A stretch of DNA of 32,000 nt from Gynuella sp. (GCA_028282465.1 JANQHX010000021.1:2437-34436); one strand, 5' to 3'. Counted from the first letter of the stretch, positions 5,403 to 24,443 are shown. Notes: generated from the letters alone by a model not told the origin. Translations and numbers: made by a program.

Positions 5403-7433
5403 TTAATCCAAGTCTTCACAATCATCTATGCCTGCAATAAGGGTGGCAGGCAATGCTCCACGAATACCTTCAACGTCTTCACAATTCAAACCAGTACCAG
5501 AAGCTTTTAACAATTTCAGTTGAGTTAACGACTCAATAGGAGTCAGATCAGCTGAAACATTGGATGACTCTATATCCAATTCTTCCAGACGATTCAGACC
5601 AGTTAAATCATCTAGGTTATTAATAGTTAGATGATTGAGCTTTAAGACTTGCAGCTGACTGAATTGACGAATAAAACTCAAATCAGAAACTGGTGTAGAT
5701 AAAATATCCAAGTATTTAATATTGGTTAATGTTTCCATTACAGAAGCGTCAACAAAGTCATAGCTCACATTCCAAATACTTAAAGATTCCAATTGCGAAA
5801 GACCCCTTAGTGGCTCTGGGCTTTCTATGCCGATAAATTCCAAATTCAGCGTTTGCAATTCAGCCATGTCTTTTAAACTTGAAGCATCTATTTTCCGTGA
5901 GTTAGAAAAACCATAAGCATTTGGTCTTAATGTTAAAGATCCTACTTGGTCCATATCTGCGAGAAAACCTAGACCTGTATAGGTACCAGTGTCATTCATG
6001 GCATAGGTTAATTCCAGGATATTTAAGCTGTCTAACTTTGGTAAGGCATTTTTAAGCCACTCTTCTTCATGAAACTCTATCACGAGTTTTTCTAAGTGAT
6101 CTTTCATGCCTTCAAGTGTTGAGGCGCTATTTTGGCTCAACTTAAAAGCATATAAGTCCAACAGAGTTAGGTTTTTTAGCCCCGACAGTGGCGAAATATC
6201 AAGTTCAGTGCTGCTAAAACCTCCATTTGTATAAACCAGCGAGATCAGTTCACTCATGTTAGCCAGATGGCTAAGATCCATCGGGGCTTCTAAATATTCT
6301 AAATCCAAAAATCTCATCTTGGTAAGCCCAGCTAAATTTACCAATGCTTGATCAGTGGTATTGCTTCCTAGCTTATTTAATTCAAGTGATTCCAATTCTG
6401 TTAGTGAACGCAGTGGAATTAGGGCGTCATCTAACAGCTCGTTTACTCCAAGGTTATTCTCGCTCAACGACAGTGACTCAAGCTGAGTCATGGAGGTTAA
6501 AGGAGTAATATCCTGAATTTGATTTCTTGATAACCATAAAGAACTTAGGTGAGTTAATCCGCCTATACCAGATAAATCATGAATTAAATTATCACTGGCT
6601 GATAGACTCGTCAGATTTGAGAATGCCAATAATGAATCAAGAGATTCAAATTGGTTTTGGGAAATATTAATTATCTGTAAAGATACTTGAGAGTCTTCAA
6701 GCTGGATTTCGGATATCTGGTTATTACTGATATCAAGCAATTTCAGGCTAGATAACCCAGGTAGGTTAACTGCAGGCCCTAATTCATTGCTATCTAGTTC
6801 AAGACTTTCCAATGCTGAAAGACCTGATAATCCTGTTACACCTTCAATATCGTTATCGCTGAGATACAGTGATGTTAGTTTAGAGTTACTTTCAAAAGAT
6901 GGCAGAGTTTCAATACGGTTGCTTTCAGCATAAAGGGTTTCTAGCTCTGGCTTATTTCTTAATGAGGCGATGCTTTTCAATTTGTTTTGCGCGAGATCAA
7001 CGATTGTAAGTTGTGAAAGATTCTCTAACGCATCGATAGACGTTACTGCATTGCCATATAGATGTAATTCTTTCAGCTGGGTCAGTTCAGCCAAAGGGGA
7101 TAAGTCTGTGACGGTATTAAGCGGGTCAACTTGATCTTCAAAAATATAGTTGAGATGGTTGTTCATCATAAGGTGTTCTAAATTCACAAATACTTCAATT
7201 CCTGAAATAGTTTTCACCCCTTTTTGTCGACAACGAATTTCGGTGACATCTTCAATGCTAGACCAGCCTTTCGATGCAGCGGTTGAAGAAATACACTGTT
7301 TAAACGCGTCATCTGGTATGTCTAGTTCTGAAATAAATTCAGGCGCTTGAGGAGTATTTGAATCATTTGACTCGTTGTTACAACCCATTAGGGTAACAAC
7401 TAATATCAGGGGAAGAATGGATCTAAATTTCAC
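5403..7433 (-). CDS. Leucine-rich repeat (internalin-type) lipoprotein
   Basis: Signal peptide with lipobox (ILVVTLMGC) and many ~21-22 aa LRRs (e.g. LENLSQLTIVDLAQNKLKSIASLRNKPELETLYAESNRIETLP). Confidence 0.9.
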   Translation of the reverse strand: MKFRSILPLILVVTLMGCNNESNDSNTPQAPEFISELDIPDDAFKQCISSTAASKGWSSIEDVTEIRCRQKGVKTISGIEVFVNLEHLMMNNHLNYIFEDQVDPLNTVTDLSPLAELTQLKELHLYGNAVTSIDALENLSQLTIVDLAQNKLKSIASLRNKPELETLYAESNRIETLPSFESNSKLTSLYLSDNDIEGVTGLSGLSALESLELDSNELGPAVNLPGLSSLKLLDISNNQISEIQLEDSQVSLQIINISQNQFESLDSLLAFSNLTSLSASDNLIHDLSGIGGLTHLSSLWLSRNQIQDITPLTSMTQLESLSLSENNLGVNELLDDALIPLRSLTELESLELNKLGSNTTDQALVNLAGLTKMRFLDLEYLEAPMDLSHLANMSELISLVYTNGGFSSTELDISPLSGLKNLTLLDLYAFKLSQNSASTLEGMKDHLEKLVIEFHEEEWLKNALPKLDSLNILELTYAMNDTGTYTGLGFLADMDQVGSLTLRPNAYGFSNSRKIDASSLKDMAELQTLNLEFIGIESPEPLRGLSQLESLSIWNVSYDFVDASVMETLTNIKYLDILSTPVSDLSFIRQFSQLQVLKLNHLTINNLDDLTGLNRLEELDIESSNVSADLTPIESLTQLKLLKASGTGLNCEDVEGIRGALPATLIAGIDDCEDLD

Positions 7434-7799: not shown

Positions 7800-8234
7800 C
7801 TAAACTGAACGAGTGGTATAGGAAGTAAAGTCTGGCTTAACCGGTGCATAGTCTCTGTCGTGTAACAACGAAGAGCGAATCATTAAATCGGCAGAAGCTC
7901 GGTTGCAAGCAACCGGAATATTCCACAGAGCAGCAATTCTCAACAAGGCTTTAATATCTGGGTCGTGAGGCATTGGCTCTAGGGGATCCCAGAAGAAAAT
8001 CAACATATCAATTTCACCTTCAGCGATTTTAGCACCAATTTGTTGGTCACCACCTAAAGGCCCGCTTAACAAACGAGTCACGGTTTTTCTCATGCCTTCT
8101 TCCAACAGTTTGCCTGTTGTGCCAGTGGCATAAATGTTTAACGGAGCCAATAAGTCATAATTGGCTTTGGCCCATTCTACTAGCTCTTTCTTTTTATGAT
8201 CATGTGCTACCAGCGCAACGCTTTTAGTCGCCAT
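7800..8234 (-). CDS. mgsA: Methylglyoxal synthase
   Basis: ALVAHDHKKKELVEWA...YATGTTGKLLEE...LSGPLGGDQQIGAKIAEGEIDMLIFFWDPLEPMPHDPDIKALLRIAALWNIPVACNRASADLMI. Confidence 0.96.
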   Translation of the reverse strand: MATKSVALVAHDHKKKELVEWAKANYDLLAPLNIYATGTTGKLLEEGMRKTVTRLLSGPLGGDQQIGAKIAEGEIDMLIFFWDPLEPMPHDPDIKALLRIAALWNIPVACNRASADLMIRSSLLHDRDYAPVKPDFTSYTTRSV

Positions 8235-8637
8235 GTTTTTCTTCCTCTTTATGGAGCAGGATGTGGTTGCCCTGCGCTTTGTAAAATCTCATTGTTAAGG
8301 GTAGGGTCGCAAAATAAGCTAGGGCTCCGGTAAAGTTAGCCAGCGCGTCCCACCAAGACAGCATTCTGTAAGCTGTCATACCTTGTAGTATTTCGATAAC
8401 AACCCCGTAACCCGCCACGATCAATAATTTCCACCACCAGCGTTGGCCTGGGTGGGGATAACTCCAGTCCACCAAACCAGCCAACACAAAATAGGCAATT
8501 AAGTGATTAACCTTATCGTTGCTGCCAGATGGATGATCAATGGGTGTCAACGAAAGCACTGCTATGGTTAAAAAAGCCAAGAGTGTAATGGCTTTAAAAC
8601 CTAAACCGCCGGGCTGTATTTGTTTTATCCAGTTCAA
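8224..8637 (-). CDS. VanZ-family membrane protein
   Basis: DKVNHLIAYFVLAGLVDW...YGVVIEILQGMTAYRMLSWWDALANFTGAL; four TM segments; overlaps mgsA start. Confidence 0.85.
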   Translation of the reverse strand: MNWIKQIQPGGLGFKAITLLAFLTIAVLSLTPIDHPSGSNDKVNHLIAYFVLAGLVDWSYPHPGQRWWWKLLIVAGYGVVIEILQGMTAYRMLSWWDALANFTGALAYFATLPLTMRFYKAQGNHILLHKEEEKHGD

Positions 8638-8701
8638 ACGTTACACACTCTAAAAAATCATTAACTGCGGATACTAACAGATTTTCAGCAGAGCCGGTTC
8701 C

Positions 8702-8866
8702 GGGCCTGTTAATACTAATTGCCTCTTTGCTGTTGAGCTTACTAATCCCTCATTCGTCGTTCGTCGTTGCATCTTTTTATATAGCTCGTTACACCACACT
8801 CGCTACGCCTTGTTTGGCTCAAAAAATAGCCGACGGCAGCGTGAAACAATTCGTGCTAACAGGCCC
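8702..8866. repeat. Candidate MITE-like element with terminal inverted repeats
   Basis: Left end GGGCCTGTTAATACTAATTGCCTC; reverse complement of the right end GGGCCTGTTAGCACGAATTGTTTC; 19 of 24 positions match, with the outer 10 perfect. Non-coding. No target-site duplication seen. Confidence 0.45.
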
Positions 8867-8886
8867 TAGGCTGCTAACCTGAATTC

Positions 8887-11091
8887 ATGTTAAAAAAAAT
8901 TCTGCGTAATCATCAAGCGGTTGTACTTGGGTTACTATTTACTGCCTTAACCTGTTGGTGGCAGTTGCATAATGACCCCCGCGAGCCGTCATTTCTAAAC
9001 CGTCTGGATTACATCCTCTACGACTGGCGGCTTAACTCCACTGGCTTTGCCAACAAACACCCTGACCACAATATTCTTATTGTAGACATAGACGAACGCA
9101 GTCTTAAGGTAGAAGGGCAGTGGCCCTGGGCCAGAACCAAGGTTGCAAAGCTGGTGCAGAAACTCTCAGAGCAAGGGGCCATTGTAGTCTCCTTCGACGT
9201 ACTGTTTTCTGAGCCAGAGCAGCATCCCTTGGAATTTATCTCTAATCTGGCTGAAGCCGAACCAGAGCTGTTAGCTCAATTAGAACAGTTTCGACAACAA
9301 TCAGATGGCGACCAACTGCTGGCACAAGCCTTTCAGCAAATGGACGTAGTACTAAGCTATTTACTCAGAGAAGAGCCAAACACAGTGGGTGCCCTGGGTC
9401 CCATTGTGGAAGAAATGACGGCAGAGCTCTCCAGCCGGAGCATTCTTCTCAAGGCTAATGGCTACACCGGCAATATTCCATTACTGGCCGACAGCGCTAT
9501 TTCCAGCGGCTTTTTTAACCCCACCCCCGACCCAGATGGGGTGATTCGCAGCGTGCCTTTGGTGTGGCGAATAGGTGATAAGGTGTATCCGTCACTAGCG
9601 CTGGCAACTGCCATGACCTATCTGTTTCAGGATGAAATCCATATAAAAAGAGTGGCGGTCGGCGACTTGGATTTTGTCGAAGGCATTCAATTTACCAAAA
9701 AGCTTATTAAAACCGACTCTCAAGCCAGGGTGATTGTGCCCTACATAGGCCCCAGAGATTCCTACACCTATGTGTCGGCCACCGATGTCTTAAATGACCA
9801 GGTGGATCTCTCTATTATGGAAAACGCCGTGGTAATGGTGGGCACCACAGCAGTGGGGTTATTCGATCTGAGAACCACACCGGTGGGCACTGAATACCCA
9901 GGAGTAGAAGTGCACGCCAATGTAGTGAATGCTCTTATGTCTGGTGATTTTCCCTATGCCCCAGATTGGAGTGACGCTGCAGTATTTGTTTTTCTATTAC
10001 TCATCGGCATTATTTTCTCTTTTGTGTTGCCAAAGTTTGGCCCAGTGGTGTTATTTTTATTTTCAGTGTTTGTACTGGTGATTTTAATCATCACCAATTT
10101 TTGGCTCTGGCAAGAACATAAACTGGCCTTGCCGCTAGCCAGCAGTTTAATTCTGTTATTTACCCTCAGCGTCATCAATTTAGTCGAAGGTTTTTGGCGT
10201 TCTACCCAAAGCCGAAGAGAAGTCACCGAAATGTTTGGCCAGTACGTGCCCCGAGCTCATATTGACCATATGCTAGAAGCGCCAGATGACTATGGTTTTG
10301 ACGGCGAAAGTAAAGAGCTCACAGTGTTGTTTTCTGACATTAGAAGCTTCACCACCATTTCTGAAAAGCTGTCGGCCATTGAATTAAAATCCTTATTAAA
10401 TCGCTACTTCACTCCCATTACCGAAATTATTTTTAATAACCGAGGCACCATCGACAAATACGTCGGCGACATGGTGATGGCATTTTGGGGCGCACCTTTA
10501 GACGATGAAAATCATGCCGAAAACGCTCTAAAAGCCACCATGGAAATGCTCGAAAAAATAGAAGCCTTAAAACCCGAATTTGTGGCAGACGGCTTACCAG
10601 AAGTGAATGTGGGTATTGGTTTAAATACCGGCCCCATGAACGTAGGCGATATGGGTTCAAACTTTCGCCGGGCTTATACCGTGTTAGGTGACGCTGTTAA
10701 TCTTGGTTCAAGATTAGAAAGCCTAACTAAATTTTACGGCGTGCAATGTTTAGTAGGGCCAGACACCAAAGACCTATGCCCCAATTATGCATTTCGCTTT
10801 GTAGATAAAATAATAGTGAAAGGCAAAGACGAACCCATTCAAGCCTGGGAGCCTTTGTGCCTAGAAAAAGATTTATCAGAAGATTGGCAAACCGAACTTA
10901 AACAATTTGAACAAGCCTATGAAAACTATGCTAACCAAAACTGGCAAGATGCTATTGAGCAACTGACACAATTAACAACCACTAGCCCAAGGCCATTTTT
11001 GTATCAAGTTTATTTAGACCGCATTGAAAGTTTAAAAGCACAAGACCTGCCTGAAGATTGGGATGGCACTTTTAGGCATACTTCGAAATAA
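8887..11091 (+). CDS. CHASE2-domain class III adenylate/guanylate cyclase
   Basis: CHASE2-like extracytoplasmic region (NILIVDIDERSLKVEGQWPWARTKVAKLV), three TM segments, then the cyclase catalytic domain (ELTVLFSDIRSFTTISEKL...DKYVGDMVMAFWGAP...YTVLGDAVNLGSRLESLTKFYG). Confidence 0.93.
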   Translation: MLKKILRNHQAVVLGLLFTALTCWWQLHNDPREPSFLNRLDYILYDWRLNSTGFANKHPDHNILIVDIDERSLKVEGQWPWARTKVAKLVQKLSEQGAIVVSFDVLFSEPEQHPLEFISNLAEAEPELLAQLEQFRQQSDGDQLLAQAFQQMDVVLSYLLREEPNTVGALGPIVEEMTAELSSRSILLKANGYTGNIPLLADSAISSGFFNPTPDPDGVIRSVPLVWRIGDKVYPSLALATAMTYLFQDEIHIKRVAVGDLDFVEGIQFTKKLIKTDSQARVIVPYIGPRDSYTYVSATDVLNDQVDLSIMENAVVMVGTTAVGLFDLRTTPVGTEYPGVEVHANVVNALMSGDFPYAPDWSDAAVFVFLLLIGIIFSFVLPKFGPVVLFLFSVFVLVILIITNFWLWQEHKLALPLASSLILLFTLSVINLVEGFWRSTQSRREVTEMFGQYVPRAHIDHMLEAPDDYGFDGESKELTVLFSDIRSFTTISEKLSAIELKSLLNRYFTPITEIIFNNRGTIDKYVGDMVMAFWGAPLDDENHAENALKATMEMLEKIEALKPEFVADGLPEVNVGIGLNTGPMNVGDMGSNFRRAYTVLGDAVNLGSRLESLTKFYGVQCLVGPDTKDLCPNYAFRFVDKIIVKGKDEPIQAWEPLCLEKDLSEDWQTELKQFEQAYENYANQNWQDAIEQLTQLTTTSPRPFLYQVYLDRIESLKAQDLPEDWDGTFRHTSK

Positions 11092-11099
11092 ATAGTTCT

Positions 11100-14039
11100 T
11101 TAAGATTCATAGCGTGTTTCTATCAGTTTTCCTTTTAGATTGCTCAAATAGACTTGGTAGTATGACTCCATAAGTTCAGCTAGTTTTTCATATTCGTCAT
11201 TGCGTCCAAGTTGATAGCCCGCAGCAAAGTTTACAAAGTCCAGGTCTTTTAATTGCTGAACCATCACCTGATCAAGAAAATCAAACCATCCTTTGATTGA
11301 AGCCGATACCTCACAAGAGAAAGCATCGAACATTTCTTTGGCAGAATTAAATCCTATTCGGACATAATTGTTTCCAATTATTTGAAAAACGCCCATGCTT
11401 GTTGCTTGGTATGCCGCTTCTTCGTTAAGGCTACGGGCGAATTCAAATACCTCCCATTCTTTTCGTTGTTGACCATGAAAGTACTTCCAGTCTTCCTCAA
11501 CAGTTTTTCTCCATTTATGGCCTAACCAAACCTTGCTTGAGTCGTATTGAAAATGTTGGTTATATAAATCAGTGTTTGTTTTACCCCAATATTTCCAAAA
11601 TAAGTGATTTTCAAAACGTATTTTTAAACGATCTGAGTTGGTTTTATCTAGCTCTTCATCGTTAGATATCGAGCACAAAACAGCGAGGATGCAGCCTAAA
11701 TCAATTGCTGTTTTATTGCTGATTTGGAATATGAGTTTGCCGTATTTATCCCAGATAGAAGTCAGCTTGTTTATTTTATCCTTGTCCACAAAATCAGATT
11801 TTATTTCAGCAGGTTTAACCCGACTATTTTTGCCGATAGTAACTGTTAGTTTTCTTGGCCGACCCTGTTCATCCACGTTGTTTTCATCCCATTCCGCAAT
11901 GGAATCTTCATTGCCAAGGTTTTCCCAGATTTCCTTAAACATCATTAACGGGAAAATTCTGTCGTTTGTGTCTTTGCCCCAGAGCCACTTATACAATCGT
12001 GGGTCGGCTGGGTATTGGTTGCCGGGTTGGCCGGTTGAGTTGCTTCTTGCGAAGCCGGGTTGGTTTTCTGAGCAAATTATTTGGGTGTGGTATGCAGCCT
12101 CATTTTCAACCCACTCTTCAACAATGGCCGGGCCTTCCAAATCCTTGTAAAAAGTTTTTAAACACTTGCCAGTGGCTAGATCCCAGAGCTTGAGAGTGTT
12201 ATCAGTGCTTCCGGAAATGAATCGCTGGTCATCCACCATCGCCGCGCTGGTAACCGGGCCTCCATGGCCCACAAAGGTTTGTAAACAATTCCCGGTGGCC
12301 AGATCCCAGAGCTTGAGGGTGCGATCATCGCTTGCGGAAATGGCCCCCTGGTCATCCACCACCGCCACGCTGTTGATCCCGCTCCCATGGCCCACAAAGG
12401 TTTGTAAACACTGCCCAGAGGCCAGATCCCAGAATTTAAGAGTGTTATCATAGCTTCCGGAAATGGCCCGCTGGTCGCCCACCACCGCCACGCTGGTGAC
12501 CGATAGTTGATGGCCCTCAAAGGTTTGTAAACATTGAGCGGAGGCCTGATCCCAGAGCTTGAGGGTGTTATCCCAGCTGGCGGAAATAACCCGCTGGTCA
12601 TCCACCACCGCCAGACTGTTGACCGAGTGTTGATGGCCCTCAAAGGTTTGTAAGCACTGTCCGGAGGCCAGATCCCAGAGCTTGAACGTGTGATCATCGC
12701 TGGCGGAAATGACCCGCCGGTTATCCACCGCCACGCTGCTGACCCAGTCTTCATGGCCCTCAAAGGTTTTTAAACACTGTCCGGAGGCCAGCTCGAAGAG
12801 CTTGAGTGTTCTGTCATAACTGCTGGAAATAACCCGTTGGTGATCCACCACTACCACGCTGCTGACCCAGTTTTCATGGCCCTCAAAGGTTTGTAAGCAC
12901 TGTCCGGAGGCCAGATCCCAGAGCTTGAGGGTGTGATCACCACTGGCGGAAATGACCCGCTGGTCATCCACCACCGCCACGTTGGTGACCCAGTTTTCAT
13001 CCTCAAAGGTTTGTAAGCACTGTCCGGAAGCCAGATCCCAGAGCTTGAGAGTCTTATCACGGCTTGTGGAAATGACCCGCTGGTTATCTACCACCGCCAT
13101 GCTAGTGACCGAGCCTTGATGGCCCTCAAAGGTTTGTAAACACTGCCGGGAGGCCAGATCCCAGAGCTTGAGGTTAGCACGGCTTGCGGAAATGACCCGC
13201 TGGTCATCTACCACCGCCACGCTTGTAACCAGACCTCCATGGCCCTTAAAGGTTTGTAAACAATTGCCGGTGGCCAGATCCCAGAGCTTAAGGGTCTTAT
13301 CACGGCTTGCGGAAATGACCCGCTGGTCATCCACCACCGCCACGTTGGTGACTGGGCTTTTATGGCCCTCAAAGGTTTGTAAGCACTGTCCGGAGGCCAG
13401 CTCCCAGAGCGTGAGGGTCTTATCACGGCTTGCGGAAATGACCCGCTGGTCATCCACCACCGCCACGCTGCTGACCCAGTTTTCATCCTCAAAGGTTTGT
13501 AAGCACTGTCCGGATGCCAGATCCCATATCTTTAGAGTGTTATCATCGCTTCCGGAAATGACCCGCTGGTCATCCACCACCGCCACGCTGGTGACCGAGT
13601 CTCGATGGCCCTCAAAGGTTTGTAAACACTGCCGGGAGGCGAGATCCCAGAGCTTGAGGGTGTAATCATCGCTGGCGGAAATGACCTTCTGGTGATCCAC
13701 CACAGCTACGCTGGTGATCGAGGCTTGATGGCCAAGCCTAGTTAGACTTGGCAGCGATGTTTTTAGGTTAGCTGGGGTGTGCCATGGCACTCGCGTTTTT
13801 GATGTTGTGGAGTCACTTTCATTAAACCGAGCAAAATAATGCTCGGAGTAGGCCAGCGGTGTGCCCTCAAGGTTTGCCGGTGTTAAATCAAGCCCGCGAA
13901 TATAAGAACCGCTTAGATCCAGCTTGGAATAGTCCAATGTCTCAGCTCCAACAGTTGCTAAGCCGATAGGCTGAGCAGATTTGTATTCCGGGTTTATTTT
14001 TTTAACTAAAAGAGAAAGCGCCTGTGCGGTTTTATCCAT
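11100..14039 (-). CDS. WD40 beta-propeller protein with C-terminal N-acetylmuramidase-like (PF11860-type) domain, probably catalytically inactive
   Basis: 13 tandem WD40 repeats (aa 104-636, e.g. HRDSVTSVAVVDDQRVISGSDDNTLKIWDLASGQCLQTFED). The C-terminus (IRFENHLFWKYWGKTNTDLYNQHFQYDSSKVWLGHKWRKTVEEDWKYFHGQQRKEWEVFEFARSL...SMGVFQIIG) is homologous to the neighbouring SH3-muramidase. Confidence 0.88.
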   Translation of the reverse strand: MDKTAQALSLLVKKINPEYKSAQPIGLATVGAETLDYSKLDLSGSYIRGLDLTPANLEGTPLAYSEHYFARFNESDSTTSKTRVPWHTPANLKTSLPSLTRLGHQASITSVAVVDHQKVISASDDYTLKLWDLASRQCLQTFEGHRDSVTSVAVVDDQRVISGSDDNTLKIWDLASGQCLQTFEDENWVSSVAVVDDQRVISASRDKTLTLWELASGQCLQTFEGHKSPVTNVAVVDDQRVISASRDKTLKLWDLATGNCLQTFKGHGGLVTSVAVVDDQRVISASRANLKLWDLASRQCLQTFEGHQGSVTSMAVVDNQRVISTSRDKTLKLWDLASGQCLQTFEDENWVTNVAVVDDQRVISASGDHTLKLWDLASGQCLQTFEGHENWVSSVVVVDHQRVISSSYDRTLKLFELASGQCLKTFEGHEDWVSSVAVDNRRVISASDDHTFKLWDLASGQCLQTFEGHQHSVNSLAVVDDQRVISASWDNTLKLWDQASAQCLQTFEGHQLSVTSVAVVGDQRAISGSYDNTLKFWDLASGQCLQTFVGHGSGINSVAVVDDQGAISASDDRTLKLWDLATGNCLQTFVGHGGPVTSAAMVDDQRFISGSTDNTLKLWDLATGKCLKTFYKDLEGPAIVEEWVENEAAYHTQIICSENQPGFARSNSTGQPGNQYPADPRLYKWLWGKDTNDRIFPLMMFKEIWENLGNEDSIAEWDENNVDEQGRPRKLTVTIGKNSRVKPAEIKSDFVDKDKINKLTSIWDKYGKLIFQISNKTAIDLGCILAVLCSISNDEELDKTNSDRLKIRFENHLFWKYWGKTNTDLYNQHFQYDSSKVWLGHKWRKTVEEDWKYFHGQQRKEWEVFEFARSLNEEAAYQATSMGVFQIIGNNYVRIGFNSAKEMFDAFSCEVSASIKGWFDFLDQVMVQQLKDLDFVNFAAGYQLGRNDEYEKLAELMESYYQVYLSNLKGKLIETRYES
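12132..13730 (-). repeat. Tandem array of 13 WD40-coding repeat units, ~123-bp period (120-135 bp)
   Basis: Recurrent near-identical DNA such as 'ccagagcttgagggt', 'tggtcatccaccaccgccac' and 'ggccctcaaaggtttgtaa'; units of 40, 41 or (last) 45 codons. Confidence 0.95.
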
Positions 14040-15981
14040 GGTTACTATCCACTAATTGCTCTCCTAAATTTTGTATTCGCTCTAACACCCTGGTTGTTTT
14101 ATAAAATTCTGTCAGTTGAATGGCTGAAGTAATATCGGCTAAGTCTTCTAGCCATTCAATATCGGTAACCAGGGTTTCATTTGAAGTCATATATTCTTCA
14201 GACCTAAATAGCTCTAGCCATTCATGAAAAACTGGGTCTGGTAACTTTTTATGGCGCCATTCTTGTCGCCTAATAAAATCTCTTCTTGAACTTATGTCTG
14301 GCAGCATAAAACCACTTTGTAGCTCCCCCAGATCAACATTCGAAATAGTTTCTAAGTGGTCTTCATTAATGATTTGAACAGGAGCTTTATGCTTTTGAGT
14401 TTCAATAGCTTGATTTTTTAAATACAGGGCCTCGAATTGGTTTAAAGCTTCATCATCAGTAATAGGGTTAGATTTAATTTCATTACCGTGAAAGGCTGCA
14501 AGTGGGTCTATGCTGTAGCGGTTTCGTTTGGATTCACGGAGTAAGTTTTTAAACTGATGCCAAGCCAGTTGATATTCACTGACGGTTATTGGGCTGGTTG
14601 GATTCTGAGTGCCTTCCAAAGCCTCTTTATTACTTTTATCCACCTCTTCAACGATTGTCTGGGCCTCGAATCTATAACTCATTTTGCATTCAAACAACCA
14701 GTTGTATACCACTTCATTAGACCTGAGCAGGCGATATAAGCTGGAGAATTGCTGTTCTAAAATAGTAATTCTGGCTAGATGTTCTAAGTGCTGGTCATGC
14801 TGGTTAATAAATTCTTTGCCGCCTTCTAGGTTTTGAATGGTATCTCGCTTGAGTTGTATGGCTTCTGCGGCTCGAATAAGTTTTCTAGGTACAGGTGGAA
14901 TGGCTTGGTTAAATAAATTCAATAAGGGTAGATTTAATTTAGTTTCTGCATGTTTATCCTCTGGTTGTTCGTCTTGGCGATCATCTATTTGACTAGCTTT
15001 TTGGGCATCTTCTGCTTTTTCTTCAACTACAAAAAGGCTTGGGTAATGTTCAATTAAATAAGCTTGGGTTTGGTTTTGTGACCACCTAGGCAAATGAATA
15101 GGAATATGAACAATCTTTTCTAAATACTCTGCGCCGGTAATAGGTGGGCTGATATTGGAGTCTCGGTCTTTTTCTAAAAAGTAGTCTTTGTATCTATGGT
15201 TAATGCCTCGTTCAACCACTTCGTCGTCTACGGCTAGCACAAAGGCAAAATTATTAATATTTAAAAATAGTTTGATGGATTCAAGCATTTGTACTGCGTT
15301 ATCTGGCAGGCATCTGTCCAAGTCATCTACAAGTACAATAATTCTAATTTTGAGTTTATCGTCGTCAGGTGATTGGGTGAGTTGTTCAAGTGATTCAAAG
15401 GTACCGTAATACATGGACTCCATCTTTTTAGTCGCTTCATTTTTCTTAGCGTCAGAAGCTGCCGCTGATTCTAGGCTGTCTTTGCCACTGAATTTGATGA
15501 CACCAAAATCAAAACTCAAACCAGTTGCGACAGATCTCGTTAAATCAGCAATGGTTTCACCGGTTTTTATTAGCAAGGATTTAAGTTGGTCAGTAACAGC
15601 CCTTGTTAATGTCAAGGCATGGCTTTCGATCTTGCTTTGATACTTTTCTAACTGGTTTTCAATGGTTTTTAACAGAGGAATGATTAAAAAGTCTTCCTGC
15701 TCGTATTTCCAAGGGGAGAAAAACACAGGAATATTGATATGCTTTATCGAGTTGTCTTCAGTATTTGAGTCTTGCCAGATTAAATTTTCAGATTTGGAGT
15801 AGTGTTTTTCAATCTGTCTTAGGTGCCAGGTTTTACCTATGCCCCATTCACCATAAACAGACACCACCAATGCTTCACCACTGGCTTTGTGGGGAAAACT
15901 GGTATTAATAACATCACAAATGTTACTGACGATTTCGCTAGAAACATCACTGGAAACGTTAGCGGTATCCGAAACGGGCAT
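14032..15981 (-). CDS. KAP-family P-loop NTPase
   Basis: Walker A VVSVYGEWGIGKTWHL and KAP-type Walker B IRIIVLVDDLDRCLPDNAVQMLESIKLFLNINNFAFVLAVDDEVVERGI; EKIVHIPIHLP motif. The stop codon overlaps the downstream ATG (ATGGATAA). Confidence 0.93.
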   Translation of the reverse strand: MPVSDTANVSSDVSSEIVSNICDVINTSFPHKASGEALVVSVYGEWGIGKTWHLRQIEKHYSKSENLIWQDSNTEDNSIKHINIPVFFSPWKYEQEDFLIIPLLKTIENQLEKYQSKIESHALTLTRAVTDQLKSLLIKTGETIADLTRSVATGLSFDFGVIKFSGKDSLESAAASDAKKNEATKKMESMYYGTFESLEQLTQSPDDDKLKIRIIVLVDDLDRCLPDNAVQMLESIKLFLNINNFAFVLAVDDEVVERGINHRYKDYFLEKDRDSNISPPITGAEYLEKIVHIPIHLPRWSQNQTQAYLIEHYPSLFVVEEKAEDAQKASQIDDRQDEQPEDKHAETKLNLPLLNLFNQAIPPVPRKLIRAAEAIQLKRDTIQNLEGGKEFINQHDQHLEHLARITILEQQFSSLYRLLRSNEVVYNWLFECKMSYRFEAQTIVEEVDKSNKEALEGTQNPTSPITVSEYQLAWHQFKNLLRESKRNRYSIDPLAAFHGNEIKSNPITDDEALNQFEALYLKNQAIETQKHKAPVQIINEDHLETISNVDLGELQSGFMLPDISSRRDFIRRQEWRHKKLPDPVFHEWLELFRSEEYMTSNETLVTDIEWLEDLADITSAIQLTEFYKTTRVLERIQNLGEQLVDSNHG

Positions 15982-16195: not shown

Positions 16196-17542
16196 GTGTT
16201 CATGTTTGCCAAGGTAACCGCGTCTGCGCTCAATGTACGATCTGTGCCCAAGGCCTCAGGGAAAATTTTGGGTGTCCTTCACAAGGATCAAGTCATCCGC
16301 ATAGAAGGTGAGGAGGGCAGTTGGAGCCAATTAGCTTATATGGGTCAAACTGGATTTGTGGCAACAGAGTATTTGACGTTTGAATTTGAAACGGATCAAT
16401 TAATGGGCAAAGTGACTGCCTCTTCACTGAATGTCAGGCCCGACCCTTCAACCTCGAATGAGCCTATTACAAAACTGGATAATGGGGTAGAGGTGAGCGT
16501 TTTAAAGCAGGTGGAGGATTGGTACGAAATAGCACTGCCGGATTCCACAGGTTTTGTGTCAGCCAAGTTCATTGACGTCAGTATCCCTGACCAACCCAGC
16601 TTGATTTTGGTGAATGCTAGTAATTTAAATGTTCGTTCTGGGCCTTCAACTGACCATGAAATTATCGGTTCAGTTGACCAGGGCACTCAATTAATCAAAG
16701 TGTCAGACAATAATGATTGGATTGAAGTTCGGTTTAATGATGAACCTGGGTATGTGCATTCTGATTTTGTAAAACCATTTAGTGGCACTGCCAAGAAACC
16801 AAGGGCAAGACGTACCCGTCTAATCAATTCAACAAGCGCCTCATCGACTGACAGCGCATTGGAACCAGACACTCAGCTGTTAATTGAAGGGGACAAAACC
16901 CAGAAAAAGGTGGCTAGAACCTGGAATAGCTTTGGTGGCATTTTACAAAAGCTCAGTTCAGATTTTGGTTTTGAAGCTGCCAGCGCAATAGCTGTGCTTT
17001 GTGTTGAAAGTTCGGGTAAGGGTTTTCAAAAAAGTAATGACAACCGCATGATCATTCGTTTTGAAAACCACAAGTTTGACGGTTATTGGGGTGAACAGAA
17101 TTCAGAATTATTTGATCAGCATTTCAAATACAACAAGAAGGGTAAGAAATGGCTGGGTCATGAGTGGCGAGAAACTACCAACGATGAGTGGAGTCGCTTT
17201 CATGGCAAACAAAGAAAGGAATGGGAGGTGTTTAATTTCGCAAGACACTTAGACAGTGATGCGGCCATGATGTCTATTAGCATGGGAGCTCCCCAGATTA
17301 TGGGTTTTCATTATAAACGACTGAATTACTCATCAGTGGCTGAAATGTTCGATCAGTTTTCCACTGACATGGCGGCGCAAATTGAAGGATTGTTTCGTTT
17401 TCTGGATAAACGAATGATAAAGGCATTAGTGGAAAAAGACTTTGTGGAGTTTGCTCGCTGGTATAATGGTGCTGGACAAAAACAAAAATATGGCGGCTGG
17501 ATTATGGATCATTATCAGGCCTTTAAATCTTTAGCGAATTAA
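16196..17542 (+). CDS. Three SH3b domains + N-acetylmuramidase domain (PF11860-type)
   Basis: Three copies of the SH3b pattern (VTASALNVRSVPKAS...; VTASSLNVRPDPSTS...; VNASNLNVRSGPSTD...), then AIAVLCVESSGKGF...IIRFENHKFDGYWG...SISMGAPQIMG...FARWYNGAG. Start GTG 16196 or ATG 16202. Confidence 0.9.
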   Translation: MFMFAKVTASALNVRSVPKASGKILGVLHKDQVIRIEGEEGSWSQLAYMGQTGFVATEYLTFEFETDQLMGKVTASSLNVRPDPSTSNEPITKLDNGVEVSVLKQVEDWYEIALPDSTGFVSAKFIDVSIPDQPSLILVNASNLNVRSGPSTDHEIIGSVDQGTQLIKVSDNNDWIEVRFNDEPGYVHSDFVKPFSGTAKKPRARRTRLINSTSASSTDSALEPDTQLLIEGDKTQKKVARTWNSFGGILQKLSSDFGFEAASAIAVLCVESSGKGFQKSNDNRMIIRFENHKFDGYWGEQNSELFDQHFKYNKKGKKWLGHEWRETTNDEWSRFHGKQRKEWEVFNFARHLDSDAAMMSISMGAPQIMGFHYKRLNYSSVAEMFDQFSTDMAAQIEGLFRFLDKRMIKALVEKDFVEFARWYNGAGQKQKYGGWIMDHYQAFKSLAN

Positions 17543-20274: not shown

Positions 20275-20952
20275 TTAGTCTCGTCTTACTCGAATCAGTA
20301 TTCGTCGGTTCTGAGTTCTGCGTTCTTCAACAGGAATGGTTTCGTCTGTGACCTTGGGGCGCGAATCAGCATAGCCAGAAGCTTTCATTTGCATTGGGTC
20401 TAAGCCCTGTTCTTGAAAATACTTCACTATGTTTGTGGCGCGATTGGAACTGAGCTCCCAGTTGGAATCGTATTTCTCATTGTGAATGGGAACATCATCT
20501 GTATGACCTTCAATTTCGACAATGTAATAACCTTGAAGATTGTTCGAAACCACTTTCGCTACATCATTCAACAGAGGTAATGCCTGTGGTTGTATATCGG
20601 CACTGCCAGAATCGTAAAGCGGAAAGTTAGTAAACTCCAGTAATACGCCTTTGTCATCAATGGTGACATTTGCAAACTGTTCCAGATCTCGAGTTTCGAT
20701 AACGGATTGCCAACCCGCTTCGATATCTCGCAATGGAGTTTGAACCTTTGTGTTGCTGATGGCTTCAGCTAAGCCTTCTTTTAACGCTTCAATTTTGCCT
20801 TGATTTAAATCTGAGACGCTCATGATCATGACAAAAAAAGCAAGCAACAAAGTGATCACATCGGAATAGGTCACTAACCAACTGTCTTGCTCTCCTTCAC
20901 CCCCTAGCCTTGGCCGACGTCGCTCTGCTCCAGGCCGTGTGCGAAGATTCAT
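20275..20952 (-). CDS. MotB/OmpA-family stator-like protein
   Basis: DSWLVTYSDVITLLLAFFVMIMSVSDLNQGK (MotB TM with proton/ion-coupling Asp) and OmpA-like peptidoglycan-binding motif EGHTDDVPI...NWELSSNRATNIVKYFQEQGL...QNRRILIRV. Confidence 0.93.
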   Translation of the reverse strand: MNLRTRPGAERRRPRLGGEGEQDSWLVTYSDVITLLLAFFVMIMSVSDLNQGKIEALKEGLAEAISNTKVQTPLRDIEAGWQSVIETRDLEQFANVTIDDKGVLLEFTNFPLYDSGSADIQPQALPLLNDVAKVVSNNLQGYYIVEIEGHTDDVPIHNEKYDSNWELSSNRATNIVKYFQEQGLDPMQMKASGYADSRPKVTDETIPVEERRTQNRRILIRVRRD

Positions 20953-21750
20953 TTAAGATTGCTCGCTTGCCATGTCGTAGTAGGCTTTGGGGTTAATTAA
21001 TGCGTTAAGTCGGTCTTGTATGGTGAGGGCGTCGGCCTTTTCCATCATGAATACAAACCCGTCACACCAGAGTTGATGCCGTAAATATTCCCCTTCCATT
21101 TTTTTAAAAATATGAACGGCGGCAGGTCTGAAAATCAACTGAGCCAGCATGACGCCATAGAGAGTGGTGATTAAGGCCAACGCAAGACCTTTGCCTAAGG
21201 CAGTTATGTCCCCATCCATGTTATCTAACATGATGATTAAGCCGATGATAGTACCAACCATACCAAAGGCCGGTGAGTAACTAGCCATGGTGTGTAACAC
21301 TTTTGCCGATTGAGTTCTTCGAGAAAAATCCGCTTCAATGCGGTTAGATATTAAATAGCGAATCTCTTTAGAATCATAGCCCGCAGTTATTTGTTCTAAA
21401 CAATAAGTTAGAAACTCGTTCTTTTTTTCTTTGTTGGTAAGGGAATTTGAAACCGCTGTGAGACCTTGTTGTCGATAGATTTGGCTCCATTCAATAAAAC
21501 GTTTGATGTCTGACCTCAGGGTGCTGTGGTTGTCGCGCTCTTCACTGAAAGTTCGAAAAAGAGCAAAAATAGCGGTGACAAACTCCTTCATGTTGTAACT
21601 AATAATGGTCGCCGCTGCTGTTCCACCCAACACCATAGCAACACTGGTGGGGCTAATAAAAATAATGAAGTTATCGGTATTCGAGGTGATCGCATAAAAG
21701 AATAATGCGATGGCACCTATGATGCCGATGAGTGTGCTAATAAATGTCAT
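20953..21750 (-). CDS. MotA/PomA-family stator-like protein
   Basis: FISTLIGIIGAIALFF; VLHTMASYSPAFGMVGTIIGLIIMLDNM; ALALITTLYGVMLAQLIFRPAA. Confidence 0.93.
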   Translation of the reverse strand: MTFISTLIGIIGAIALFFYAITSNTDNFIIFISPTSVAMVLGGTAAATIISYNMKEFVTAIFALFRTFSEERDNHSTLRSDIKRFIEWSQIYRQQGLTAVSNSLTNKEKKNEFLTYCLEQITAGYDSKEIRYLISNRIEADFSRRTQSAKVLHTMASYSPAFGMVGTIIGLIIMLDNMDGDITALGKGLALALITTLYGVMLAQLIFRPAAVHIFKKMEGEYLRHQLWCDGFVFMMEKADALTIQDRLNALINPKAYYDMASEQS

Positions 21751-23687
21751 TCAATGGTTGCCAAATCTTGCATACTGAATTTACCGGTTTTTATTAATTC
21801 ACGAATATGGTGAACAATGGTACGACGAGATTGCTCAACGAGGTTATCGTCCGGTTGAGAGTCTGTGTATTGAAGTTGATCTTGTACCGCAGCTCGTACC
21901 TTTGAAGGCAGTGCTTCTAGAATATATTTCACTAACTGCGGGTTGGCATTTGCGAGCGCCGAGGTCAATTGCTTTCTGTCTACTTCCCGAAGAATTTCAC
22001 CTAGAATTTCAGGTGGTGTTCTGCCTAGATCATTAAAGGTGTAGTAAACCTGTCGTAAGCGATAATAGGTTTCTGGTGAGTCCTGCTTAATTCGGTCTAG
22101 CAACTGATGCTCGTCAGAAGAGGGTAAGTTGTCGAGCATATCAATCAACAGAGCGGTGCCATCGGTATTGAGGTTTTCAAAGCTAGGCACGTTTAAAGAT
22201 TTTTTGGCAAGTCTGTCTGCGACATCTCTAAACGTGGCAATGGGAAATTCATTAAATTGTCCAATTTCGTAAGCAATTTGGCCCTGCTGTGCCGGTGCTA
22301 AATGTTTTAGCAAAGCCGCAGCCCGTGTGGCAGAGACTTGAGACAGTACCAAGGCTTTGATTCTGGGTTCTTCATCTTGCAGAAGGTAAACAATTTGGCC
22401 ATCAGCCAGTCGATCTAAAAATTTAAATGGCTTAGAAGGATGATGCTCCGGAAAGGATGCCTGATCTCGTAGTAATACATGCCTTAGTGCGGTTAACTCG
22501 GAGTGAACTTCATCTGGTGTTAATTGGTTTTGTTCCAGAAATTGAGTGATCTCATAAATCTGTCCAGTGCTGATGGACGGGAATAAGCCTCTGAACAGAG
22601 AGCCCCCTAGAGTCTGGTAGGCGGATGCTAGGGTTTTTAAATAGTTACCACCCAATAGTAAATCTTCAACCCGTCCACTGGCCCGTTCTGGATTACCAAG
22701 GCCAGCGGTAATAATTTCTTGTTTTAGAGATCGGATGTCGGCAACCACTGGTGCTTCAGAGGTTTCGTTGCTGATAGCACTAGGTACGCTAATGGGCGCC
22801 TGGTTTACTGTTGAGTCTGGCGGTAGTGTATATTTAGGCTTTCTAAAAATGAGGATCAGCAACAGTAAAAAAATAGACGCCGCAAAAGCCAGTGCAACCC
22901 AAGGTACCCAAGTTTGCTGCCACCAGTTTAACTCTTCGCTAGTACTATTGGGGTCCAGCGCTTCCGGCATTCTGGTGTCTGGTTCGCTGTTCAATTCATC
23001 AGAAATGGATTCAAAAGGCGTTTTTACCAGAACAAGGCGGTCACCACGAAAGTAATTCAGTTTCAGCTTACTCTCTAAAAGTGTTCTGACAAATTCTTCC
23101 TGAGAGAGACTAATGGTTTCGTCAATTAATATGGTTACCACCAGGTTTTCTATTCTGGAGAAAATGTCCTGACTAGTTTCCAGTATTTCTTCAACGGGCT
23201 CGCCGCTGTCTTCAAAATTAACAAGACTTTCCCGCATGGATTTTAAACTTTCCAGTACCGGTGAATCCGTGGGTGCTGGTACTTCAACGGATGCATCTTC
23301 ACCAAAGGGTAATCCTGGTAGTTGAATGCTTTCTGGCGTGGAGGATTGTTGTTGTTCCAGCGTCTTTTGTTCTAGTTCCTCGATAAGAGCATTGAGGTTT
23401 TGTAATTTTTGTTCTTGAGCTGGGCTTAAAATATAGTCAGGTGCCGCTTTTGGAATGGTACCTCGCAACCGTTGAATACGGGCATCAATATTGATGATGA
23501 AACGATCATTACCCAAGTAGGCTCGAAGGTCTCTGGTAATTCGGTTTTCCATCTGCCCGATGAATTCCATTTCTGTCATCACGTCTTGTTCAGCAGAAAT
23601 GAACTCGTCAACACTCCAAGCTTTGGCGCTTAGCAAAACCAACAAACTGACGCTGACCCATAAAAAGTATTTGTTCATGTTCATCAT
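21747..23687 (-). CDS. Membrane-anchored FliG-like protein (signal peptide, extracytoplasmic region, TM, FliG M/C-like cytoplasmic region)
   Basis: N-terminal signal sequence (NKYFLWVSVSLLVLLSAKAWS), TM (WVPWVALAFAASIFLLLLILIF), then FliG-like DEEPRIKALVLSQVSATRAAALLKHL and TPPEILGEILREVDRKQLTSALANANPQLVKYILEALPSKVRAAVQDQL...VEQSRRTIVHHIRELIKTG. Confidence 0.82.
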   Translation of the reverse strand: MMNMNKYFLWVSVSLLVLLSAKAWSVDEFISAEQDVMTEMEFIGQMENRITRDLRAYLGNDRFIINIDARIQRLRGTIPKAAPDYILSPAQEQKLQNLNALIEELEQKTLEQQQSSTPESIQLPGLPFGEDASVEVPAPTDSPVLESLKSMRESLVNFEDSGEPVEEILETSQDIFSRIENLVVTILIDETISLSQEEFVRTLLESKLKLNYFRGDRLVLVKTPFESISDELNSEPDTRMPEALDPNSTSEELNWWQQTWVPWVALAFAASIFLLLLILIFRKPKYTLPPDSTVNQAPISVPSAISNETSEAPVVADIRSLKQEIITAGLGNPERASGRVEDLLLGGNYLKTLASAYQTLGGSLFRGLFPSISTGQIYEITQFLEQNQLTPDEVHSELTALRHVLLRDQASFPEHHPSKPFKFLDRLADGQIVYLLQDEEPRIKALVLSQVSATRAAALLKHLAPAQQGQIAYEIGQFNEFPIATFRDVADRLAKKSLNVPSFENLNTDGTALLIDMLDNLPSSDEHQLLDRIKQDSPETYYRLRQVYYTFNDLGRTPPEILGEILREVDRKQLTSALANANPQLVKYILEALPSKVRAAVQDQLQYTDSQPDDNLVEQSRRTIVHHIRELIKTGKFSMQDLATIE

Positions 23688-24443
23688 TTAGTTAAATAGA
23701 ACTTCCAGACCCTTTCGAACATCTTCCATGTTGGGATCAATTTCTAATGCTTGTTCCCAAGCCGTTTTGGCTTCTTCTCTGCGGCCCATTTTGTAATAAA
23801 TACTGCCCTTTAAGGCATAGGCCAGTGCAAATTCAGGCTGTTGATTGATTGCCTGTAATGTCGCGTTCAATGCACCTAGATAGTCTCGCCGGTAAAACAG
23901 TTGTTGTGCCAATACAATACTGTCGTTAGCAGTCATTCCTGACGATGGCGTCGGGTTTAATGTTGTCTCGGTAATGCCATCTGCATTGGTTGTTTCATCA
24001 ATAGGTAACTCGCGATTACTTGAATTTGGTTGTTCATTCTCTCCCATATCCATGGACTTCAGTTTTTCTGCAACTGCACCTAATGGATCATCAGTCTCTT
24101 CCGATTCAGGTAAGTCCATAACAAAGGCAACGTTTTCTTCGCCAGTATCTAGAATTAAGGAGATGTTATAACCCGGACCATGACGGTCTATGGTGATGAC
24201 TCCGAAGTCATCCTTGCCTCTCTGGTTGAGCTGGGTGGGTTCAATTGGCGAATTCGCTTGTAGAATTTGCGATTCTGTGGGGCTAGTTAATTCAGTGTTT
24301 GCGCTGCTATCGCTAATGGTGACGTCTTCGGTTTTAGACGTTTGTTCAGAAGCCGATGTGCCGTTGTTTTGTCCAAACATGGAACAGGCTGATATCAAAA
24401 ACATGGATGTCATTGTCAGCAAAAAAGGAGTCAGTCTTCTCAT
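23688..24443 (-). CDS. TPR-containing lipoprotein
   Basis: Start chosen at ATG 24443 (not 24524): MRRLTPFLLTMTSMFLISAC lipobox. C-terminal TPRs (LAQQLFYRRDYLGALNATLQAINQQPEFALAYALKGSIYYKMGRREEAKTAWEQALEIDPNMEDVRKGLEVL). ATG overlaps the upstream stop (TAATG). Confidence 0.85.
   Translation of the reverse strand: MRRLTPFLLTMTSMFLISACSMFGQNNGTSASEQTSKTEDVTISDSSANTELTSPTESQILQANSPIEPTQLNQRGKDDFGVITIDRHGPGYNISLILDTGEENVAFVMDLPESEETDDPLGAVAEKLKSMDMGENEQPNSSNRELPIDETTNADGITETTLNPTPSSGMTANDSIVLAQQLFYRRDYLGALNATLQAINQQPEFALAYALKGSIYYKMGRREEAKTAWEQALEIDPNMEDVRKGLEVLFN

Follow-up and report, generated by a model that had tools for sequence, protein, structure and literature searches.

WD40 arrays in which the repeats are almost identical pose the question of what such a repetitive surface binds and which protein it serves. 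We addressed this question for a stretch of 32,000 nucleotides (nt) from Gynuella sp. (GCA_028282465.1, JANQHX010000021.1:2437-34436), analyzed as a whole and called the window hereafter, in which one gene on the minus strand encodes 13 such units. A reading made from the sequence alone, referred to below as the original prediction, had proposed a rapidly evolving recognition surface like the repeats of fungal HET-E/HET-D proteins and of cyanobacterial nucleotide-binding leucine-rich repeat (NLR) proteins. The array lies in a protein of 979 amino acids (aa) whose gene overlaps that of a KAP-family NTPase, and this pairing recurs in other bacteria. We think that the array probably recognizes the ligands of a two-gene, NLR-like system made up of the KAP NTPase and its WD40 partner. 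The gene pair has the following parts (window coordinates).

11100..14039, minus strand: whole partner gene, one unbroken open reading frame (ORF) of 979 aa with an N-domain, 13 WD40 blades, a C-domain and a muramidase-like domain
13737..14039, minus strand: family-specific N-domain, aa 1-101, with the core AQALSLLVKKxNP...YLRGLDL within aa 1-55
12150..13736, minus strand: WD40 array of 13 highly internally conserved units, aa 102-630, delimited by Tandem Repeats Finder and anchor splitting and supported by AlphaFold and Foldseek
11808..12149, minus strand: family C-domain, aa 631-744, with the motif PADPxLYxWLW...W and no Pfam family
11103..11807, minus strand: PF11860 (DUF3380) N-acetylmuramidase-like domain, aa 745-979 (Pfam E 3.5e-26, 93 bits, cutoff 22.3)
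14032..15981, minus strand: KAP-family P-loop NTPase gene, 649 aa (PF07693 E 9.5e-37, 127 bits, cutoff 20)
14032..14039, minus strand: 8-nt overlap ATGGATAA, in which the KAP stop codon lies over the start codon of the WD40 gene

Thirteen regular WD40 units

Tandem Repeats Finder detected a period of 123 nt in 13.0 copies (12150..13733, 82% matches), and cutting the translated array at the anchor CL[QK]TF yielded 13 units of 41, 41, 40, 41, 40, 41, 40, 41, 40, 41, 41, 41 and 41 aa, built on the framework V(A)VVDDQRVISASxDxTLKLWDLASGQCLQTF. A Pfam scan of the 979-aa protein likewise returned 13 WD40 repeats (E 4e-109). The 13 units of 40 to 41 codons that had been predicted were confirmed in this way, with the coordinates first given for them (12132-13730) right to about 18 nt. 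Mean pairwise identity between units was approximately 0.81 at the nucleotide level (range, 0.72-0.93) and 0.70 at the amino acid level. All triplets that had been noticed behind the Gly-His (QAS, RDS, ENW, KSP, GGL, QGS, EDW, QHS, QLS, GSG and GGP) were found in the units, as was every residue pair listed at S-x-D-x-T. The clean 3-nt deletions were present as well: FEDENWV in units 3 and 7 differs from FEGHENWV in unit 8 by an out-of-phase change of GGC CAT to GAT, and further 3-nt deletions, different ones, occur in units 5 and 9.

AlphaFold2, run on the full protein with 70 homologues, modeled the propeller with confidence: from aa 103 to 630 the predicted local distance difference test (pLDDT) score was mostly >90, and 52 strands formed 13 four-stranded blades. 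The Gly-His histidine and the Asp of the B-C turn both belong to the WD40 hydrogen-bond network. The histidine is missing from unit 3 (13371..13490) and unit 7 (12885..13004), and the conserved Asp from unit 5 (13128..13247); the blades of these three units were still predicted with high confidence. Outside the propeller, the N-domain was modeled as a helix at residues 2-15 (pLDDT ~57) and a remainder of low confidence, and the C-domain reached pLDDT values of <50 at aa 631-680 and ~58-63 at aa 681-740 (low to moderate). No Pfam family matched the N-terminal 110 aa. In Foldseek searches the propeller matched 2ymu_A best (43% identity, E 6e-49), followed by tandem-propeller proteins and Apaf-1, and the closest sequence matches of the array include fungal HET-E and cyanobacterial/Sorangium NACHT/NB-ARC/TIR WD40 proteins. 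Among the matches listed, NB-ARC, NACHT or TIR proteins with WD40 repeats, from cyanobacteria, Sorangium and other sources, predominate.

An assembly artifact in the count or order of the units, or decay of the gene into a pseudogene, is very improbable. Exact repeats in the array are at most 54 nt long; 78 31-mers recur, and no k-mer of at least 55 nt does. The Logan assembly (k=31) of run SRR20820736 therefore stops in unit 2, whereas an assembler with k of at least 55 can place each unit uniquely. The complete array was found in a single assembly. Such a suspicion could draw on the breaks of k=31 and short-read assemblies of the window and of related loci, 110-170 codons into the partner gene, on the residues missing from units 3, 5 and 7, and on the absence of the exact 979-aa protein from a protein collection that has the adjacent KAP protein. 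Set against this, the ORF is open across 2,940 nt, all indels in the array are in-frame multiples of 3 nt, all 13 units are regular, high-confidence blades in the AlphaFold model, and two loci from long-read metagenome-assembled genomes (MAGs), L006 and L008, have the same architecture.

Pairing of the WD40 gene with a KAP NTPase gene

The KAP protein carries a Walker A motif (GEWGIGKT, aa 44-51) and a Walker B motif (IVLVDD, aa 215-220), both of which were invariant across 13 homologues. Translational coupling of the two genes through the 8-nt overlap is possible; an overlapping arrangement of KAP and partner genes was also found in the related loci L002, L005, L006, L007, L087 and L090. Hydropathy analysis revealed no transmembrane segments in the KAP protein, and signal peptides and transmembrane segments are absent from both proteins of the pair, which are therefore taken to be cytoplasmic. 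Pfam scans of the full 979-aa protein and of aa 1-110 found no NACHT or NB-ARC domain and matched WD40-type families and PF11860 alone. The NLR label that the repeats had suggested thus does not fit the WD40 protein: the NTPase is of the KAP type and comes from a separate, overlapping gene upstream. The nSTAND5 model matched the KAP protein under its own cutoff (E 0.005). PADLOC models gave partial matches to QatA, PifA and PDC-S20 (E ~1e-21 to 1e-23), the NCBIfam model of QatA scored 107 bits versus a cutoff of 600, and neighboring qatB, qatC and qatD genes are absent, the neighbors being the WD40 partner and an SH3-muramidase gene. A scan of viral contigs with the KAP profile retrieved distant KAP proteins alone (23-26% identity) and gave no sign of a phage-borne system.

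Pairing of a KAP gene with a WD40-partner gene recurs in at least nine other lineages. A KAP gene followed by a gene for an N-domain and propeller was found at L001, L002, L004, L005, L006, L007, L008, L086, L087 and L089/L090. KAP homologues of 46, 43 and 39% identity lie on short-read contigs that end 110-170 codons into the downstream gene; these truncated genes overlap the KAP gene or directly adjoin it and start with AQALSLLVKKxNP...YLRGLDL, followed by WD40 units. Four of the five short-read or k=31 contigs (L001-L005) end in this way, and L003 ends 63 nt past the KAP gene. As the contigs break at the first WD40 units, full-length partners are largely missing from protein databases. The exact 979-aa protein was absent from a collection of 15 billion proteins, although the adjacent KAP protein is in it (P0149), and the 120 matches listed in a full-length search with the 979 aa cover ~46-62% of the query, are generic WD40 proteins and have no orthologue among them. 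The more complete loci were as follows.

L006, Gammaproteobacteria MAG chromosome: 13 units of 41 aa, 89% nt identity
L007, genome contig: 14 units of 45 aa
L008, genome contig: 14 units, 99% identical
L086, low-coverage long-read contig: conserved 41-aa propeller units in a gene split by a frameshift, ~13 blades by length
L087, genome contig: ~14 diverged blades
L089/L090, Nevskia: ~14 diverged blades

Units were enumerated for L006, L007 and L008; for L086, L087 and L089 the blade count is an estimate, array length divided by unit length. The count of 13 to 14 across the family suggests a structural bound near two 7-bladed propellers over free variation, and any difference in repeat number between strains, as originally predicted, may be bounded accordingly.

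A hidden Markov model (HMM) of the N-domain, made from seven members, matched solely ORFs that follow KAP genes of this clade (E 1e-23 to 1e-33). The C-domain aligned with the partner C termini of L006, L007, L008, L086, L087 and L089, all of which end in PADPxLYxWLW...W. Flanking genes differ at every locus, and thus the pair moves as a two-gene cassette. In P0243, from Myxococcota, the KAP domain, the N-domain motif and conserved WD40 units form a single chain; this Rosetta-stone fusion argues that the KAP and WD40 proteins work together. No description of a KAP NTPase with a separate WD40 partner was found in the literature searched, in which subscription journals were thinly covered, so that this is absence of evidence only.

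Many relatives of the KAP protein (P0205-P0251; 31-38% identity over the NTPase) are fused to an FGE-sulfatase domain (PF03781) or to DUF1566. FGE-sulfatase is a known sensor type and a known type of target of diversity-generating retroelements. Together these fusions suggest that the KAP clade generally pairs with variable binding modules. At L006, an ORF upstream of the pair (8181..9311) matched the PADLOC pAgo and Aga models for pAgo-associated proteins (E 1e-17 to 3e-9) and is the sole defense-like neighbor seen among the family loci. The units of L086 (8208..10690) lack the W-D dipeptide (SGSxDGRVRRFDGRSGELLGEPIEVGSWVxSLAYSPSGDEFV) and are divided over two ORFs by a frameshift that is probably a sequencing error, the contig name suggesting 3x coverage; upstream of this partner gene are genes for a PIN-domain protein and a DDE transposase.

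Variable codons predicted to lie on one face of the propeller

Five columns of the unit alignment are hypervariable: columns 4-6, directly behind the Gly-His, and columns 23 and 25, on either side of the Asp in S-x-D-x-T. Column entropy was 2.0-2.7 bits at columns 5, 25, 23, 4 and 6 and 1.5 bits at the column ranked next. The five columns make up 12% of the unit (5/41) and carry 42% of the nonsynonymous differences. The ratio of nonsynonymous to synonymous substitution (dN/dS, Nei-Gojobori) was 2.4 at these columns versus 0.33 in the other 36, in keeping with the nonsynonymous excess expected at the variable codons. The columns were picked post hoc in the window array and then checked at the same structural positions in relatives, where dN/dS was 1.78 versus 0.53 for the framework in L006, 1.08 versus 0.27 in L007 and, from very few differences in a nearly homogeneous array, 2.55 versus 0.74 in L008. 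The highest-entropy columns of L006 and L007 were the same as those of the window, plus column 8, the second residue of strand A.

Projection of the DSSP string onto the unit alignment placed strand A at columns 7-12, strand B at 17-22, strand C at 26/27-31 and strand D at 37-41. On this projection columns 4-6 lie in the D-to-A loop and columns 23 and 25 in the B-to-C turn. All five top-entropy columns thus fall inside the eight columns of the D-A and B-C loops, and this clustering exceeds chance (hypergeometric probability, ~7.5e-5, from C(8,5)/C(41,5)). The A-B loop (columns 13-16) and the C-D loop (columns 32-36) are conserved (entropy, <=1.2 bits), which argues that the variation is specific to one face and no general property of loops. 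By standard WD40 topology, the "top" face of the propeller is made up of the D-A and B-C loops and the bottom of the A-B and C-D loops. The variable residues are predicted to lie together on that one face, in agreement with the recognition surface that had been proposed.

Homogenization within arrays

Nucleotide identity within arrays was ~0.80 in the window and 0.89 in L006, versus 0.51-0.66 between arrays, and the nearest neighbor of each unit always came from the same array. Concerted evolution is therefore indicated, and in this respect the exchange among units that had been proposed was upheld: each array has been homogenized. Units 3 and 7 have the His-deleting indel in common and are 92% identical, yet their B-C residues differ (R/K versus G/H), and the turn RDK was found with three different D-A triplets. 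Such mosaicism fits exchange with breakpoints inside units. The four-gamete test was failed by 42% of the informative site pairs, and a permutation test of recombination similar to the pairwise homoplasy index (PHI) was borderline (P ~0.05). Identity was weakly tied to the distance between units (0.827 for adjacent units and ~0.805-0.814 for more distant ones).

In the L008 partner gene (11977..14448), the 14 units share 99% nucleotide identity, and several are the same throughout; the differences fall only on positions that are hypervariable in other arrays (S or R behind GHQG; A, D or Q ahead of the Asp). The array appears to have been homogenized or amplified recently.

Base composition changes stepwise within the single ORF of the window. 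The array has a GC content of 0.55 and a GC content at third codon positions (GC3) of 0.65; GC3 is 0.41 in the N-domain, 0.40 in the C-terminal part, 0.35 in the KAP gene and 0.40-0.46 in neighboring genes, and genome GC is ~42%. A smaller GC3 step was found in L007 (0.80 versus ~0.70) and almost none in L006 and L008. GC-biased conversion or import from a GC-richer donor are possible sources of the step.

A putative two-gene sensing system

The mechanism that we propose would work as follows. Intragenic recombination or gene conversion would keep the blade framework homogeneous while the residues of the D-A and B-C loops are diversified, producing a propeller face able to switch specificity fast. 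This face may bind a foreign protein, most likely from phage. The N-domain, as the probable contact site, would couple the partner to the KAP NTPase, which would act as a nucleotide-dependent switch and transduce the signal. Several published findings have a bearing on this proposal. Fungal and bacterial NLRs have in their highly conserved WD40 and TPR repeats an established means of quickly diversifying what they bind (bioRxiv 10.1101/2020.01.06.895854); the sensors documented for defense STAND (signal transduction ATPases with numerous domains) NTPases include FGE-sulfatase and WD40 domains (PMC13581612); and KAP NTPases fused to unknown regions give Walker-B-dependent phage resistance (PMC13552941).

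Alternatively, the pair might be a nonimmune scaffold or signaling module whose propeller is a generic platform with recently amplified units and whose loop variation reflects relaxed constraint. We consider this unlikely. One face's loops alone vary, and the equally exposed A-B and C-D loops are conserved; loop dN/dS exceeds 1 in the window array and in L006 versus 0.3-0.5 in the framework. Each independent lineage homogenizes its own array, and a defense role is documented for related KAP proteins. The scaffold explanation finds support in L008, with hardly any loop diversity among 14 almost identical units, in the low loop dN/dS of L007 (1.08), in the ordinary, diverged blades of L087 and L089 and in the window neighborhood, which is no defense island.

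Some of these observations also weigh against the sensing system that we favor, together with others. High internal conservation is not universal in the family, as the blades of L087 and L089 show. The dN/dS values are no more than suggestive, five near-saturated codons (dN ~0.9) being compared among paralogous units that exchange sequence, and the face was assigned from DSSP strand order and textbook topology. PADLOC and NCBIfam recognized the pair as no known defense system and returned generic KAP similarity alone, and domain scans found no effector domain (nuclease, protease, TIR or another with obvious cell-killing activity) in either protein. The genes around the pair are ordinary chromosomal ones (an ABC transporter, an mgsA-like gene, a CHASE2 cyclase, a short-chain dehydrogenase/reductase [SDR] and PfkB). 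The interpretation as a whole draws on sequence and model analysis of the family. For the rapidly evolving recognition surface of the original prediction, the position of the variable residues, the substitution pattern and homogenization speak in its favor. The analysis establishes the anatomy, where the variable codons lie, the homogenization of each array, the conserved pairing of the genes with its fusion and the lost catalytic residue; ligand sensing, signaling through the KAP protein and an immune role are inferred from these findings, and a two-gene, NLR-like sensor is the reading that we regard as probable.

A muramidase-like domain that has lost its catalytic residue

Two further features concern the C-terminal domain of the WD40 protein and an adjacent gene.

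11667..11669, minus strand: codon of Ile791, at the position of the catalytic Glu (Glu101 of AP3gp15); CSISNDEEL here versus CVESSGKGF in homologues
16196..17542, plus strand: divergent neighbor with three SH3_3 domains and a PF11860 muramidase with intact catalytic Glu, an active-type paralogue 215 nt upstream of the KAP gene

The model of the muramidase-like domain had a pLDDT of >90 over most of its length, with a dip near the altered catalytic loop, and Foldseek matched it to the endolysins 7rum, 5nm7 and 7q4s (E ~1e-8; target-normalized TM-score, 0.6-0.8). The catalytic Glu, part of the motif V-E-S-x-G-x-G-F, was present in 29 of 29 aligned homologues, including the neighbor, and V-E-S in 23 of 23 homologues of another alignment. 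Glu101 of AP3gp15 is its single catalytic residue, and the E101A mutant loses 99.4% of activity (PMC5674055). The window domain deviates at 19 of 65 columns that are >=90% conserved and the neighbor at 2 of 66; 16 of the 19 deviations are in four stretches, aa 750-773 (the domain start), 790-797, 879-890 and 943-953. Judged by these substitutions, the domain, which keeps its fold, has very probably lost catalysis. With the catalytic Glu replaced by Ile, it is therefore not expected to be a lytic effector, and it may be a binding or bait module, which is more likely than anything lytic.

The closest relatives of the domain are proteins of ~450 aa that combine three SH3 domains with a muramidase; the nearest muramidase matches came from Calditrichaeota and Alteromonas. 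Identity was 44% to the neighbor versus 48-51% to the muramidases of other taxa, and a recent local duplication was rejected as the source of the dead domain for this reason. A secreted cell-wall enzyme was rejected as well, as the protein has no signal peptide or transmembrane segment and no catalytic Glu. Among the family members examined, the PF11860 fold was found solely in the window's protein. No other fusion of WD40 units and a muramidase was found with the C-terminal 349 aa as the query in a word-index search, in an exhaustive HMMER search of 1.84 billion representative proteins or in a scan of Joint Genome Institute (JGI) metagenomes; the matches were ordinary muramidases, and full-length genes of the fused type are under-represented as assemblies break in the array. 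In P0371 (1,238 aa), an nSTAND1 NTPase is joined to SH3, PF11860 muramidase and Peptidase_M23 domains; coupling of STAND NTPases to cell-wall hydrolases, the hydrolases presumably active, thus occurs elsewhere.

These findings bear on a third explanation, a cell-wall module in which the WD40/muramidase-like protein binds peptidoglycan or the SH3-muramidase and regulates autolysis, the KAP protein is an ATPase chaperone and the propeller variation is incidental. The fusion itself, the active SH3-muramidase gene lying divergently 215 nt from the KAP gene and the domain combination of P0371 all point in that direction. The domain is missing, however, from every other family member examined, an orthologue of the fusion was found neither among the 1.84 billion representatives nor on JGI metagenome contigs, the catalytic Glu is lost, and the pair, having no signal peptide or transmembrane segment, is cytoplasmic. 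We judge a cell-wall module decidedly unlikely.

In its boldest form, our proposal of a sensing system would make the pair a widespread, undescribed two-component NLR-like bacterial immune receptor that has here taken up a dead copy of a host muramidase, either as an integrated decoy or to sense muropeptides. This is unlikely as it stands. If it were true, an invader that hits the neighboring active muramidase or the cell wall would be detected alongside the ligands of the propeller face. For NTPase conflict systems, enzyme modules without activity have been read as decoys (PMC7159879).

Other genes of the window

Two further loci of the window were recorded. The operon at 20275..25543 (minus strand) encodes a 366-aa protein with no Pfam family, a TPR protein, a 646-aa protein with FliG_M and FliG_C, a MotA/ExbB-like and a MotB/OmpA-like protein; they form a module like a stator plus FliG, no further flagellar gene was found in the window ORFs scanned, and ZorA matched faintly (E 2e-4). 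The gene at 5403..7433 (minus strand), 3.7 kb from the WD40 gene, encodes a 676-aa internalin-like leucine-rich-repeat protein (seven LRR_4 matches and LRR_8), a second repeat-type binding protein near the WD40 gene.

Comparison with known systems

The repeat pattern by itself is not new, since fungal NLRs and some bacterial ones are already known to carry highly conserved WD40 arrays with a hypervariable face. What is new is that the array serves a KAP NTPase encoded in trans, in a pairing kept across distant bacteria and fused in one lineage; that a dead muramidase domain beside an active paralogue is a testable candidate for an integrated decoy in bacteria; and that breaks of short-read assemblies at the first units leave the family largely invisible to protein databases and defense-system surveys. 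Through the KAP/WD40 pairing, NLR logic, an NTPase switch with a fast-evolving repeat sensor, would gain a second NTPase family and a form split over two genes.

The likeness to the repeats of fungal HET-E/HET-D and cyanobacterial NLRs, as originally drawn, holds for the type of array, the match to 2ymu and the sequence matches; it does not extend to the protein, which is no NLR. The fungal HNWD NLRs (HET-E, HET-D and HET-R of Podospora) share with the window array WD40 units of ~41-42 aa that are roughly 80% or more identical to one another, hypervariable residues at few positions behind the Gly-His and around the B-C turn Asp, and intragenic homogenization; at 0.81 (nt) and 0.70 (aa), the window array is at the low end of their ~80-90% range. 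In contrast to these proteins, the window protein has neither an N-terminal HET effector domain, aa 1-110 matching the family N-domain HMM alone, nor a NACHT domain, and hence it is no member of the HET-E/HET-D family. Its host is bacterial, the KAP gene is separate, a dead muramidase domain is attached, and the units number 13-14 in the family, whereas counts vary widely among fungal alleles. The best structural match of the array, 2ymu, is the 14-repeat "highly repetitive propeller" of Nostoc.

Bacterial STAND and NLR-like sensors (Apaf-1-like, bNACHT and Avs-type) likewise couple a tandem-propeller WD40 sensor to a P-loop NTPase. Theirs is a STAND NTPase (NACHT/NB-ARC) in the same chain, with an N-terminal effector, whereas the NTPase here is a PF07693 KAP protein, sensor and NTPase are encoded by two genes (fused in P0243 alone), and no effector is recognizable. 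With a KAP NTPase in trans, the system is therefore no STAND NLR. KAP defense proteins, such as PifA of the F plasmid, QatA of QatABCD and EF_KAP, have in common with the window's KAP protein the KAP domain, intact Walker A and B motifs and a variable non-NTPase module; here, there are no transmembrane helices and no qatBCD genes, and the coupled module is a separate WD40 protein.

The PF11860 N-acetylmuramidases (AP3gp15, 5nm7; LysT84, 7rum; Pae87, 7q4s) and the bacterial SH3-muramidases share with the C-terminal domain the fold and the family match, with 44-51% identity to the SH3-muramidases. The domain differs from these enzymes by the change of Glu to Ile, a loop SISNDEEL in place of VESSGKGF, two other degenerate conserved motifs and a WD40 array that replaces SH3. 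Integrated-decoy NLRs of plants follow a comparable logic, in which an NTPase switch, a diversifying binding module and an inactive enzyme copy are combined, and by this analogy the dead muramidase domain may have a decoy role. The NTPase conflict systems (Kaur, Burroughs, Iyer and Aravind 2020, PMC7159879) have the same three elements together with an active counterpart of the enzyme in the cell; their cores are MoxR-vWA, GTPase or STAND proteins, and neither a muramidase module nor a connection of KAP with WD40 proteins appears in the passages searched. Overall, the KAP/WD40 protein pair looks like an undescribed, split NLR-type immune sensor.

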